Below, in pieces: positions 47,660 through 51,761 of a DNA stretch of 64,000 nucleotides; the first letter of the stretch is position 1; every line of letters begins with the position of its first letter. The notes under the pieces are model-generated. The model did no database searches, was not told the DNA's origin, and was given only the letters and a program-made list of their open reading frames with translations. The DNA is from a virus. The stretch lies in IMG/VR virus record IMGVR_UViG_3300022699_000302, positions 32,001 to 96,000 of that record; one strand, written 5' to 3'. The position numbers and the translations under genes are program-made.

Positions 47660-47890
47660 TTAGTTGACGGGTTTGTCTTTGCCCTGCAGGTAGTCGCGGT
47701 TGACCTTCCAGAACTCCGCAAACTTCTCGGAGTCCCCGATCTTTTTCCCCAGCGACAGCGTCTCGTCCGGGGTCATTTTATTGGCCTTGTCTATCGCGGC
47801 CTCTACTTGATCGGCGGATTCGGGATCACCGTCGAACTCTAGCTCAACAGTGGTTTCCTCCGCAACTACAACTTGAATCTTTATGGGCAT
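47660..47890 (-). CDS. Small acidic protein directly downstream of array 1
   Basis: GAGG RBS abuts the last repeat. Confidence 0.65.
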   Translation of the reverse strand: MPIKIQVVVAEETTVELEFDGDPESADQVEAAIDKANKMTPDETLSLGKKIGDSEKFAEFWKVNRDYLQGKDKPVN

Positions 47891-47900
47891 AAGATTTCCT

Positions 47901-48518
47901 CGGTTCACTCGCGGTCGACGTTGCTGTCCGTGTGTACGGCTCACTCTGCGGCAGTGTTACAGTTGTTGACGACGATTCACTTCTACGGCACGGCGTGGCT
48001 CACCTCGTACGGTTCACTCTTTTTGTACGGAACAGTTCTACGTCCCGGTTCACTCCTAATGAAGCAGTTCCAGGTCTAGGCTCAATCCTGTGTAGTGGTA
48101 CAGTCGGTGACGACGTTTCGATCAGCGCTTGCGGTGTAATCCAGAGTTGACGGCTCATTCCGGGTGCTTGGTACATTCGGGCGGGACGATTCATTCAACG
48201 AATCGGTACAATTTCTTTCTGCGATTGCTTTTCCTCTGAGAAACAGTCAAAGCCTACGGCTCATTTCATCTAAACAAAGCTTTCGCCAATGTCGATTCAT
48301 TCTGTTCATGCGTAGCTATCTTTTGATGTGATTCATTCGAGGCAAGCGGTACAGTCTCTTATGACGAGTCATTCGACGCAAACACTACAGTCAAATATGC
48401 CGATTCATTCGTTTGTTTTGGAGCAGTTCCTCCTGCCGATTCGATTTGTTACTCCGGTACTGACGTGTGTTACGTCTCGGTCGCGCGGATCGAAACAGTT
48501 ACCTGCTTCGATTAAAGG
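47901..48518 (-). repeat. 36-nt dual-repeat/dual-spacer array 1 (TIGR-like), 17 units
   Basis: Unit starts on + at 47901, 47937, 47973, 48010, 48046, 48078, 48114, 48151, 48187, 48222, 48257, 48293, 48329, 48365, 48401, 48437, 48473, 48509. Minus-strand consensus GARTGARYCG-N8-RACTGTWCCR-N8. Confidence 0.85.
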
Positions 48519-48520
48519 TG

Positions 48521-48650
48521 ATCAGGGCGACAAGGTGGCGTAGAGATACTAGAGCTCTTCCAGTTGAGCTACGGCCGAAGCCGACGGGACTCGAACCCGC
48601 AACCTCTTCGTTATCAGCGAAATGTAATCCCTACAGGTATTCGCCCTGAT
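48521..48650 (-). ncRNA. yrlA: YrlA-type Y RNA (tRNA-like, T arm before D arm)
   Basis: 10-bp terminal stem ATCAGGGCGA/TCGCCCTGAT with CCTTG; T arm GCGGGTTCGAGTCCCGT; CGGC-TTCG-GCCG closed acceptor; D arm TAGCTCAACTGGAAGAGC. Confidence 0.85.
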
Positions 48651-48816: not shown

Positions 48817-48846
48817 CACTTCTTCTTTGCGTGAGATAAAAAGAAG

Positions 48847-48949
48847 CCACCGACAGGTCGCGTCATAAGCCTATCCCCTCTCGTCATCGGCGGATTTCCA
48901 GGGAGACGTGACTACAGGGAGCTTCGTACCCAAGATGGGCTGTCGGTGG
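48847..48949 (-). ncRNA. Unknown structured RNA E
   Basis: Perfect 10-bp terminal stem CCACCGACAG/CTGTCGGTGG. Confidence 0.6.
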
Positions 48950-48975
48950 TGCCACTCCTCAAGCGGCAAAACAGA

Positions 48976-49113
48976 GAGAGTAACTGGGGGAAGGCTACTA
49001 TTCCCGGGGAAAGGCGGTCGCGACAGGTCAAACCTTTCCGTCTTCTTGTGTGACTTCAACCCTTCGTGCATCACACTCAGACGCCCTCGTTGTTTTGAAC
49101 ACCAGTTACTCTC
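48976..49113 (-). ncRNA. Unknown structured RNA D
   Basis: Perfect 12-bp terminal stem GAGAGTAACTGG/CCAGTTACTCTC with internal hairpins. Confidence 0.65.
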
Positions 49114-49121
49114 AAAAGGCT

Positions 49122-49230
49122 AGCAGCAGGCGCGGGTCGTCCGTCTTTCTAAAGCGCCCCCGAGCGCGGGATCTGCGCCGGCGCCGGGCCGAGGTTTAGG
49201 TGCCTCGGTAGCCACCATGTTCCTGCTGCT
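49122..49230 (-). ncRNA. Unknown structured RNA C
   Basis: 9-bp terminal stem AGCAGCAGG/CCTGCTGCT; GC-rich internal hairpins. Confidence 0.6.
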
Positions 49231-49243
49231 GTAAGGAAGGTCA

Positions 49244-49371
49244 GGGAGTAGGGTGTATACTGTGCCGTTCGGACTATAATCCTACCCACCTCTCGGCTTC
49301 GACGTGTATTTCAACACGCTAGGCCAGCCACCCATCGGCTATTTGCCTCTAGGCCACACTCGCCTACTCCC
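49244..49371 (-). ncRNA. Unknown structured RNA B
   Basis: 9-bp terminal stem GGGAGTAGG/CCTACTCCC with internal hairpins. Confidence 0.6.
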
Positions 49372-49381
49372 ATAAAACCAT

Positions 49382-49494
49382 GCGCGGAGAAACTACTGGC
49401 CGGCAGTGGGTCCAAACCCGAAAGCCTATCCCGACTCAGCAGGGTGTGCCATCGAAGGCAGCAGATTCCTAAAGGTCTGCCACTCTCCCCGCGC
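49382..49494 (-). ncRNA. Unknown structured RNA A
   Basis: 11-bp terminal stem GCGCGGGGAGA/TTTCTCCGCGC whose mismatches are G-U pairs only on the minus strand; starts ~15 nt after the promoter motif. Confidence 0.65.
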
Positions 49495-49509
49495 GAAAAG
49501 TGTCTACTG

Positions 49510-49518
49510 TCTTAGGCC
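49510..49518 (-). promoter_or_regulatory. Putative early promoter motif GGCCTAAGA driving the ncRNA cluster
   Basis: GGCCTAAGACAGTAGA. Confidence 0.65.
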
Positions 49519-49538
49519 GAACTCGGCCGGGAAAATGG

Positions 49539-49682
49539 TGCGGTGACAAGGTGTTGGAGAGATATTTACGCGCTCTATCCACTGAGCTACCCCACCACTT
49601 AGCTATGGTGGTGGGGGTGAGGAATCGAACCTCACGACCTCGTCCTTATGATGGAATGTAATCCCTCACGGCATTCACCGCA
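49539..49682 (-). ncRNA. yrlA: YrlA-type Y RNA (tRNA-like, T arm before D arm)
   Basis: Terminal stem TGCGGTGA/TCACCGCA with CCTTG; T arm GTGAGGTTCGATTCCTCAC; closed acceptor CCCCACCA..TGGTGGGG; D arm TAGCTCAGTGGATAGAGC; adjacent to Ro60. Confidence 0.87.
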
Positions 49683-50010
49683 TTTTCGTTTCGCGTCTCA
49701 GGCACAATCGGCTGCTACGACTCGTTCTTCATGTGCGCTACAGACGATATAGGCAACTCATTCAGACACTACGAGACCGTCTAGTTTGACGATTCGCTCG
49801 GTTGGTTCGAGACGCTCTAGAGATCCAGCTCGTTCTTCATGCACGTTGTGGTCATTTGAAGTGACTCACTCATTGACTACGGAGCCTGCGTTCAGCACGG
49901 TTCATTTTGCATCGGAGGATACGGTCGTCTGTGACGATTCAATGTTGGCGGACCGACAAGGTTGTGTGGAGTCACGGTTCATTTCCAGTAATGATGTAGA
50001 CCCCTACGGC
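49682..50010 (-). repeat. 36-nt dual-repeat array 2 (TIGR-like), ~9 units
   Basis: Unit starts on + at 49682, 49718, 49754, 49790, 49826, 49862, 49898 (36 apart), then 49935 and 49975; same two motifs as array 1. Confidence 0.78.
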
Positions 50011-50020
50011 ATTCGGTCCA

Positions 50021-50043
50021 TTGGTTGCGTCGGATGAAACCAA
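50021..50043. repeat. 23-bp palindromic element, copy 7
   Basis: TTGGTTGCGTCGGATGAAACCAA. Confidence 0.75.
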
Positions 50044-50072
50044 GTTGTCAAAGAAGCCACAAGAGGGCCCGG

Positions 50073-51686
50073 TTATACCAGGCCCTTCTTGATGGCGTCA
50101 ACCCAGTGATTCGTGCCCCCTCTGTCTTCCAGGAAGGTTGAGATGGCGTCGAACACTGAGTCATTGAACCCCCCAACATTCAGAACGTCGGGACGATTCA
50201 CGACCTGTGTGGTCGGGTGGGGCTGAAGGTCGATTAAGACCAACTTGGCATCGGGTCGGTCGGCTCGCTTTTTCCACTCATCCCAGTAATACTGCAGACC
50301 AGTACGATTCTTGGTGTAGTGGCGTGCAGGATCATTGGAGAAGTCCGCCCAGGACTCCATGTCCGAGAGAATGACAACAGCATCGAGATCGAATATCTTG
50401 TTGTCGATCAAGTACTGGATCGCCGAACTACAATCAGTCCCCCCGCCGGAACGTGCCAGCTGATTTACCAGGGTAAAAATGGAGTCACGGTCGGTAACCG
50501 ACGCGAGTTTCGCTGCAGTATCAAATTGGACGACCTTTGCGTCGGGCTGGGAGTGAAGGATGCATGCTGCCATGAGCGCTGCAACCTCACAGCATCGCAC
50601 GTCCCGGGCACCGGCACGCCTCCAGCCTCCCCGGGTGGTGGCCTTACCGACTGCGAGAGCTTGCATCGAGTACGACACGTCCACGCAAACAGCTGCCTTT
50701 CCGAAACGGGGCACGTTATCGATCGAGATCTCGACCGTATCGTGCAAGGCATTTTTGATCTTGGTCGGAATGCCTTCATTGAGGTGGCGGTAGGTCTGGT
50801 AGAGCTGGTACGGGAAGATCCGCTGCTTCTTGATTTGCTCCACATCGGTCAGCTGTTCGACTGCATACTCGACGAATCCCGTATCCTTGAGCACTTCATG
50901 GCGCTCCAGGGTATTGAGGTTCATCCGAAGAGCATGAAGTCCCATCTGGTGCCCCAAGACCTTCCAGTCCCGGGTCGAGAGATCGGGGATCGAAGTCAGG
51001 AGGCGAAACTCGATGCCCTTGGGCTTGCGGTTGCGATACCCCGCCTTCCATTCCTCGAAAACCTTCGCTACTTCGGGGAGCAGCTCCTCGTTGTAGTTGC
51101 GCCCGATCAGGTATGCATACAGGTTTGAGCGGGCTTGATCCGAGGGCTTGGGATGGATCATGTGAATGATGTCAGCGATCGACGGATCGTTACCAACTGA
51201 ATCCCTGAACAGAGCGGCGGGATGACGCTTGTTCAACCAGTGCTCGATCAGCTTCTTCAGCCAGGTGCCGAAGCTTTTTCGACCGAACCGCCCCGAACGA
51301 ATGAATTGCGCGAAGTTGCGGAGCATCCTCCCGTTATCGATCACATGCGGGAATGCCTCGTTGAACTTAACACGGTCGACTCCGGTCTGACTTGCCGCGA
51401 ACGCCATGAGAGCGGCCGGCATATCCTTCATCCACGCTTTCTTGCGCGAGTACACCGCGACATCGATGACGAAGTTCGGGTCGACCTTGCGCGCAGCCTC
51501 CAGGAGGGTCTCGAGCTGCTTCTCGCCGGTGGCGTAGAACGTGTTGTAAAAAGTACCGGTACACGCGTATTGTGCCAAGAGCTCTTCCGGATCGAGCTTC
51601 ATAGCGGCGCCTCCAGCCTCGTTGACCGTATGCTTGACCTCGATCTCGTGGGCCTTGGCTGACTTGAACATTTTCTTGTTCGCCAT
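50073..51686 (-). CDS. rsr: Ro60/TROVE-vWA RNA-binding protein
   Basis: NEAGGAA..L.P...LAQYACTGTF.NTFYA...VYSR...MKDMPA TROVE motifs; vWA MIDAS DVSYS, GGGTDCS, LSDMESW, LIDLQP..GGFNDSVF. Confidence 0.93.
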   Translation of the reverse strand: MANKKMFKSAKAHEIEVKHTVNEAGGAAMKLDPEELLAQYACTGTFYNTFYATGEKQLETLLEAARKVDPNFVIDVAVYSRKKAWMKDMPAALMAFAASQTGVDRVKFNEAFPHVIDNGRMLRNFAQFIRSGRFGRKSFGTWLKKLIEHWLNKRHPAALFRDSVGNDPSIADIIHMIHPKPSDQARSNLYAYLIGRNYNEELLPEVAKVFEEWKAGYRNRKPKGIEFRLLTSIPDLSTRDWKVLGHQMGLHALRMNLNTLERHEVLKDTGFVEYAVEQLTDVEQIKKQRIFPYQLYQTYRHLNEGIPTKIKNALHDTVEISIDNVPRFGKAAVCVDVSYSMQALAVGKATTRGGWRRAGARDVRCCEVAALMAACILHSQPDAKVVQFDTAAKLASVTDRDSIFTLVNQLARSGGGTDCSSAIQYLIDNKIFDLDAVVILSDMESWADFSNDPARHYTKNRTGLQYYWDEWKKRADRPDAKLVLIDLQPHPTTQVVNRPDVLNVGGFNDSVFDAISTFLEDRGGTNHWVDAIKKGLV

Positions 51687-51730
51687 TTGGGTCTCCTGTT
51701 CCCAACAAAAAAGAAAGCAGTATTGCTCTA

Positions 51731-51739
51731 CCTTAGGCC
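51731..51739 (-). promoter_or_regulatory. Putative early promoter motif (GGCCTAAGG) upstream of Ro60
   Basis: GGCCTAAGGTAGAG. Confidence 0.55.
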
Positions 51740-51761
51740 AGATCACCAACGAAATCTGGGT

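Follow-up and report, generated by a model that had tools for sequence, protein, structure and literature searches.

Two described systems come closest to the locus analysed here. The first description of TIGR-Tas systems dates from 2025. In the dual-repeat form, repeats of 8-12 nt alternate with spacers of ~9 nt (8 in SpTIGR) in units of 36 nt, of which an array holds 5-15 or more; processing falls midway along the edge repeat, the array opens and closes with a truncated edge, box motifs are common to edge and loop repeats, and a rho-independent terminator after the array is typical, though not obligatory (PMC12045711). Repression by TasA has been demonstrated in other systems, and a Tyr/His dyad in the Tas protein is reported to be specific to dual-repeat TIGR systems (Xu et al. 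2026, preprint 10.64898/2026.09.09.750476). The TIGRFinder survey searched around tas loci and makes no mention of orphan or distant arrays, of tRNAs or of Y RNAs. The second system is the Ro60/Rsr-Y RNA locus. Y RNAs carry a Ro-binding motif, the GNCGAAN0-1G region; those of M. smegmatis are processed from a single precursor, and the YrlA of that species is an RNase P substrate with a 7-bp stem. Where RNase P cleavage of YrlA is known, it falls inside the tRNA-like module and not at the 5' end (PMC4201824). Among the papers searched, none in which tigRNA or TIGR-Tas occurs also mentions Ro60 or Y RNA.

The phage studied here has a genome of 194 kb with direct terminal repeats, and the window, the whole stretch of 64,000 nucleotides that was analysed, corresponds to genome positions 32001-96000; positions below are those of the window unless the genome is named. 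On the minus strand the locus reads, in order, AAA ATPase, a small ORF, Ro60/TROVE, the array 2 stretch, YrlA-1, about 0.7 kb of non-coding DNA, an ORF of 55 aa, YrlA-2 and array 1, with both arrays at genome 79.9-81.9 kb. A lag-36 scan combined with a Tas search counted one Tas gene and only two TIGR arrays in the whole genome. A megablast search with the locus found nothing among GenBank phages, and neither Ro60 nor TasA, used as a single-protein query against viral contigs, found close relatives; the sole close relative (Ro60 P0002, 83%; TasA P0122, 86%) is represented by short Logan contigs for both proteins. Homologues of Ro60 number more than 2400, and RtcB and RtcA are absent among the ten ORFs around the locus that were scanned with Pfam. 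The features on which the argument rests are as follows.

50073-51749, minus strand: Ro60/TROVE gene (Pfam vWA_Ro60, E 3e-11, and TROVE)
50062-50090, minus strand: GC-rich hairpin that takes in the Ro60 stop codon and has a weak U tract; read from the sequence
50021-50043, strand not assigned: 23-bp palindrome of the TTGGTTNCATCNGANGCAACCAA type, one of the copies dispersed genome-wide, flanked by the Ro60 3' hairpin and Y3
49945-50019, minus strand: Y3, a short YrlB-like Y RNA (fold; motif comparison with YrlA-1 and YrlA-2; without an Rfam match of its own)
49682-49943, minus strand: TIGR dual-repeat array 2 (coordinate parse, periodicity against shuffles, per-position conservation, and the same repeat skeleton as beside TasA homologues)
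49935-49943, minus strand: first edge E0 of array 2 (AUUGAAUCG), 9 nt, 5'-short in that it has no leading G; it begins 7 nt past the closing stem of Y3
49682-49691, minus strand: last edge E7 of array 2 (AAACGAAAAU), 5' half AAACG kept and 3' half degenerate; it abuts YrlA-1
49537-49681, minus strand: YrlA-1, a Y RNA with a tRNA-like module (Rfam RF02553, E 6e-8, full model length)
48521-48647, minus strand: YrlA-2 (Rfam match)
47901-48516, minus strand: TIGR array 1, 17 units (lag-36 z 7.7, coordinate parse, conservation)
genome 103577-104632, minus strand: tasA, 351 aa, the only Tas gene of the phage (sequence, profile, AlphaFold/Foldseek)

Two arrays and three Y RNAs

The 36-nt periodicity on which the original prediction was built is significant. 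Over 49682-50010 the lag-36 self-identity reaches 0.369, compared with 0.253 +/- 0.025 for dinucleotide shuffles (z 4.6); over the shorter 49682-49898 it rises to 0.431 (z 5.1). In neither case did any of 500 shuffles reach the observed value. Lags 18, 72 and 108 are elevated as well, and the signal at lag 18 means that each unit consists of two related half-units. The stretch between the two arrays has no lag-36 signal. A coding reading of array 2 was rejected because no ORF spans it.

Each of the seven units of array 2 is made up of spacer A (8 nt), a loop repeat (10), spacer B (8, or 9 in unit 1) and an edge repeat (10), the edge approximating GAAUGAGUCG and the loop GACNGUCUCG. Full edges start at 49907, 49871, 49835, 49799, 49763, 49727 and 49691, and loops at 49926, 49889, 49853, 49817, 49781, 49745 and 49709. 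The 10+8+10+8 format is that of a TIGR unit, and six consecutive units, as predicted, measure exactly 36 nt; one more measures 37 nt because its spacer B has 9. Position by position, A2, G5 and A6 are invariant in the edges and G1 and C9 in the loops. Both kinds of repeat follow the skeleton R-A-N-Y-G-N-N-N-C-G, which array 1 has too, and both keep R1, A2, G5, C9 and G10, so that they share terminal box motifs, although three of the eight edges (E3, E5 and E7) have no C9. At its two ends the array begins with a 5'-truncated edge and closes with a 3'-truncated one. As RNA the array is no more structured than shuffled sequence (z +1.3).

The claim that arrays 1 and 2 have motifs in common and differ in their variable segments was borne out, all 48 spacers of the two arrays being different. 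An internal duplication had also been suggested. Units 3 and 6 do share CAUGAA and a GAACGAG edge, but the statistics are weak, since an identity of 6/8 occurs in 9 cases among 1104 spacer pairs. Array 1 begins 4 nt beyond the point where the Rfam match to YrlA-2 stops and extends to the ribosome-binding site of the following gene; along it the edge consensus changes from GAAUGAAUCG on the YrlA-2 side to GAGUGAACCG at the opposite end. It contains irregular units: spacer B of unit 13 is 4 nt long, units 8 and 9 combine a 9-nt edge with a 7-nt spacer, and units 11 and 15 have 9-nt spacers. The ORF listed at 47660-47944, with a GTG start at 47944, overlaps the last units of array 1; its true start is likely the ATG at 47889, after GAGGAAA, which would place a protein of ~76 aa directly behind the array.

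On the side of Ro60 the picture departs from the original prediction, in which intervals of 37 and 40 nt were read as decay of the array. The 37-nt unit exists; the 40-nt step falls inside Y3, where there is no unit. What had been taken for decaying units at 49945-50019 is instead a stem-loop of the Y RNA type with a 12-nt copy of an edge repeat in its apical part. The array proper is thereby limited to 49682-49943, that is, to seven units and a leading partial edge, and the supposed decay, belonging as it does to a separate Y RNA, tells nothing of which end of the array is old and which is new, as its polarity had been thought to do.

Y3 belongs with the YrlB-like Y RNAs. Its fold (z only -1.8) consists of a terminal stem of 7 bp (GGACCGA/UCGGUCC), an internal loop and, at the apex, a hairpin, and the terminal stem joins the RNA end to end beside a Ro-binding motif region and next to the Ro60 gene. 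With YrlA-1 and YrlA-2 it shares a 5'-side motif, AAUGCC(G)U(A/G)(A)GGG, and a 3'-side motif, ACCUUGUC, and the terminal stems of all three RNAs are fully paired and yet different in sequence, as compensatory change would have it. No tRNA-like module was found in Y3 (no Rfam YrlA or tRNA match, no ARAGORN match), which makes it YrlB-like and not a YrlA. Its apical part (49970-49981) is identical over 12 nt (AAAUGAACCGUG) to edge E1 plus 2 nt (49896-49907) on the minus strand, an agreement that we roughly estimate would arise by chance within 330 nt with a probability of ~0.003. Judged from this identity, the 12-mer could be a trace of recombination between Y RNA and array, or a TasA-binding element inside the Y RNA.

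As had been predicted, array 2 follows Ro60 on the minus strand, and its register continues up to the 5' end of YrlA-1, the last edge ending at 49682 and the Rfam match starting at 49681. YrlA-1 scores 44.6 bits, under the RF02553 gathering score of 69, and its fold has a z of -4.1; at gathering thresholds Rfam finds nothing in the window, and ARAGORN found no tRNA there. Within YrlA-1 (49600-49660) we note an acceptor-like stem of 9 bp (CCCCACCAC/GUGGUGGGG); as this exceeds the 7 bp of the M. smegmatis YrlA, internal cleavage by RNase P is conceivable. The ~0.7 kb between YrlA-1 and the 55-aa, Cys-rich ORF (48820-49536) holds no convincing ORF and no Rfam match.

TasA and the arrays of its relatives

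No tas gene flanks array 2; the only one in the genome lies ~22 kb away on the same (minus) strand. Pfam Nop (PF01798) has no match in the six-frame translation of the genome, so the Tas protein was located through its IS110 C-terminal domain, PDB sequences and fold. The 351-aa sequence matches TasH (21kl, E 7e-6), TasR (9mty) and Pfam Transposase_20 above the cut-off, and a profile of 50 homologues matches 9mty with E 7.5e-22. The AlphaFold model (pLDDT 91.3) finds TasH or TasR in all ten of its best Foldseek PDB matches, each with probability 1.0, the next chain having E 0.5. Because the model is all-helical and has neither an HNH nor a RuvC domain, the protein is a TasA. In the family-profile alignment its Tyr322 falls on the catalytic Y289 of SpTasH and its His331 on the catalytic H296 (PMC13421893), and His331 is kept in 50 of 50 homologues. 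The genome thus encodes a Nop-fold Tas with the Tyr/His dyad, both of which belong to dual-repeat TIGR systems. A protein of 796 aa is encoded near tasA on the opposite strand (genome 105066-107456, plus; L004 5067-7457) and combines LigD-type 3'-phosphoesterase and ATP-dependent DNA ligase domains with glycine-zipper segments.

A lag-36 array lies next to tas, on the tas strand, at 70 or more of 80 viral loci that encode TasA homologues. On that strand the consensus repeats are GAACGAGTCA and GAGAGAACCA in one relative (L007), GAGTGAACCA and GAGTACCA in another (L012) and GAATGAATCA in a third (L050), all with 8-nt spacers. The first edge of the relatives' arrays is degenerate at its 5' side and the last keeps only its 5' half (GAACGACACG in L012, GAACGTTTTA in L007); the L007 array, like array 1 here, runs into the ribosome-binding site of the next gene. 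The box motifs of the arrays described here are GA...CG and not the UG...CCA of TasR, in agreement with relatives in the TasA clade. Since consensus type, strand and end edges recur in this way, array 2 is a canonical TIGR dual-repeat array for this TasA clade. Four lag-36 signals were rejected as false positives: a Pro/Thr-rich coding repeat (L094), a simple repeat (L112), what looks like a coding Gly-Pro-rich, collagen-like repeat (L117) and, in the phage itself, an apparent acidic low-complexity coding stretch on the minus strand (genome 1422-1988).

Expression, processing and competing explanations

Signals that might govern expression of the array are few. The promoter scan saw no sigma-70-like promoter on the minus strand. 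The 23-bp palindrome (TTGGTTGCATCCGATGCAACCAA type) occurs in ~20 or more copies genome-wide, mostly intergenic (e.g., genome 41964, 58982, 93555, 138577, 152751 and 162017), and several of these are followed by ATGGCCTAAGA; it probably serves a phage regulator as its operator or forms part of a phage promoter. The GC-rich hairpin at the end of Ro60 may be a leaky terminator, although the terminator scan did not flag it and found no intrinsic terminator on the minus strand. Nor did that scan see a terminator-like site after the last edge of array 2, where YrlA-1 begins one base on.

Given the anatomy of the array and the protein encoded in the same genome, we consider it likely that array 2 is a genuine dual-repeat TIGR array specifying seven 36-nt tigRNAs, and that its partner in processing and target binding is the only TasA of the phage. 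We infer that one non-coding precursor would carry Y3, the seven tigRNAs and YrlA-1, starting either near the palindrome behind Ro60 or by read-through from Ro60. A TasA dimer would bind each edge and each loop repeat, and the Tyr322/His331 dyad would cut inside each edge, releasing 36-nt guides in which an 8-nt spacer A, a 10-nt loop and an 8-nt spacer B, in that order, are framed by a half-edge on each side; the same cuts would separate off Y3, with ~11 nt left at its 3' end, and YrlA-1, with ~5 nt left at its 5' end. The original prediction had suggested that the folding of YrlA could set the processing register, with RNase P, Z or E as candidate nucleases. Neither is needed: in dual-repeat TIGR systems, edge repeats cut by the Tas Tyr/His dyad set the register (Xu et al. 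2026 preprint; PMC13421893), which leaves YrlA folding unnecessary for this purpose, and the known RNase P cut of YrlA does not fall at its 5' end (PMC4201824). The TasA-tigRNA complex would then recognize split targets of 16 bp, spacer A pairing with one DNA strand and spacer B with the other, and could block transcription or replication of non-self DNA, whether of the host or of rival mobile elements. The phage genome contains no self-target at one mismatch or fewer in either split-target geometry, and 3 at two mismatches against 4.4 in mispaired controls.

A different reading would make array 2 a decaying relic, stranded far from tas and holding no guides that are usable now. The array is detached from tas, its repeats are the less well conserved of the two arrays (C9 is missing from three edges), and array 1 already contains defective units, with its 4-nt spacer B in unit 13 and its indels in units 8, 9, 11 and 15. 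The peak lag-36 identity of array 2 is ~0.46, where 0.55-0.72 is typical of relatives, and its repeats are more degenerate than most; lying as they do at the degenerate end of the family range, they leave this reading some probability. Neutral decay, however, would not keep six units in exact 36-nt register without an indel. The invariant edge and loop positions, the canonical form of both array ends and an intact tasA with its dyad also argue against decay, and secondary arrays of similar degeneracy (lag-36 identity 0.42-0.48) are common beside intact tas genes in relatives. On balance we think a relic unlikely. Still harder to credit is the notion that the repeats act as DNA, be it as iterons, a partition site or a protein-bound promoter array. 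A periodicity of 18 and 36 bp with short conserved blocks would suit such an element, and some units resemble -35/-10 hexamers of the TTGACG...TACAGT kind on the plus strand; yet the promoter scan flagged nothing inside the arrays, an interval of 36 bp does not equal an integral number of helical turns, and the 8-nt segments between blocks all differ, which is typical of guides and not of iterons. Moreover, the motif is strand-specific and of a type identical to that of the tas-coding-strand arrays in at least 70 phages. We regard this explanation as very improbable.

A further proposal adds to the TIGR explanation and does not replace it, namely that the Y RNAs and the array are functionally coupled. 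Coupling could take one of three forms: (i) the Y RNAs could serve as stable caps or processing boundaries for a guide precursor that has no terminator; (ii) cuts made by TasA could mature the Y RNAs; or (iii) the Ro60-Y RNA particle could help to trim, check or tether tigRNA-TasA. At three junctions an array and the end of a Y RNA are 0-7 nt apart, and the 12-mer that Y3 shares with edge E1 sits in its apical part, where other Y RNAs have an effector-binding module. Clustering of non-coding genes in a shared transcription unit would nevertheless suffice to explain the arrangement, the TasA dyad accounts for processing without Ro60, and the resemblance of the Y-stem GAAUG to the edge repeat may be chance, GAAUG being a general YrlA motif (PMC4201824). 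Evidence from other phages is similarly divided. In an unrelated phage (L150/G092; IMGVR_UViG_3300030508_000013, a 165-kb record, 58% complete, with a Ro60 38% identical), which stands out among 80 Ro60 loci examined (L150 4001-9647; L180, contig 124400-131000), Ro60 is followed by 2.7 kb with few long ORFs, containing a YrlA-like RNA, tRNA-Glu, a tRNA/YrlA-like element and tRNA-Thr, and then by a 36-nt dual-repeat TIGR-type array of ~54 units. That array (AGUGUAUCA / AGUAAACCA, 9-nt spacers) differs from those described here and begins ~520 nt past the last tRNA, unfused, and no Tas gene turned up in this incomplete record. Four of 50 TasA phages (G025, G032, G035 and G046, 62-96 kb; loci L085-L088, L090-L092 and L095) also have Ro60-like vWA genes with adjacent YrlA-like RNAs; these phages, however, are mutually related and keep their arrays beside tas, 7-36 kb from Ro60. 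A tRNA lies within 4 kb at only 1 of 60 ordinary TasA loci, so TIGR arrays are not generally found in RNA islands. On the other side, a search of 50 Ro60-encoding viral records that included a positive control found no A1-type TasA. The association of TIGR arrays with Ro60 islands recurs, then, and direct fusion of the kind seen here is rare.

We hold functional coupling in any of these forms to be doubtful. The fullest version, in which the Ro60/Y RNA particle and TIGR-TasA would constitute one system with shared precursors, TasA would mature the Y RNAs, and the effector module of Y3 would have been replaced by an edge repeat that TasA binds or cuts, so that Y3 would link Ro60 to the RNA-guided DNA binder, seems to us rather unlikely. 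Were it true, function, and not chance clustering, would account for the TIGR-type arrays that unrelated phages carry in their Ro60 islands. The locus is in any event a testable case of possible cross-talk between the Ro60-Y RNA and TasA-tigRNA machines: if the two are coupled, it would provide the first functional context for phage Ro60 and for nuclease-less TasA, and if they are not, it still illustrates cleanly how an island of non-coding RNAs recruits guide arrays. With the TIGR reading that we prefer, it means that guide arrays can lie tens of kilobases from tas, embedded among other small RNAs, and finders that scan only around tas would miss them.

Comparison with known systems

Array 2 is an array of a known kind in an undescribed layout, detached from tas, lacking a terminator, and capped by Y RNAs inside a Ro60 island. 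In common with the TIGR-TasA systems of Faure et al. (2025, PMC12045711) and Xu et al. (2026) it has a 36-nt unit, two alternating repeats, two short spacers and truncated end edges, together with a phage-borne, Nop-fold Tas that carries the Tyr/His dyad; with SpTIGR, from Salicola phage CGphi29, it shares the format of 8+8-nt spacers. It differs from the published systems in that tas is 22 kb distant from the arrays and not beside them, the array is not followed by a terminator, Y RNAs adjoin array 2 on both sides within a Ro60 locus, and the repeats are unusually heterogeneous within the array.

Seen from the other side, the locus resembles the Ro60/Rsr-Y RNA loci (Chen et al. 2014, PMC4201824; RF02553), where several Y RNAs with a Ro-binding stem in common come after a Ro60 gene, some of the YrlA type with a tRNA-like module and others of the shorter YrlB-like type, here represented by Y3. 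Guide-RNA arrays between the Y RNAs, present here, have been described at none of the rsr loci. CRISPR systems likewise have tandem repeat-spacer arrays that are processed to guides, and their arrays may sit apart from the effector genes; here, in contrast, the 36-nt period comprises a pair of repeats and a pair of 8-nt spacers, the effector is a Nop-fold protein, there are no adaptation genes, and targeting would be split over both DNA strands. In plants, dicistronic tRNA-snoRNA genes are reportedly processed by RNase Z. Polycistronic box C/D snoRNA clusters and these plant genes offer an analogy, and only an analogy, in that guides are co-transcribed with a tRNA-shaped RNA that acts as a processing boundary; those systems are eukaryotic, guide RNA methylation and employ other enzymes.
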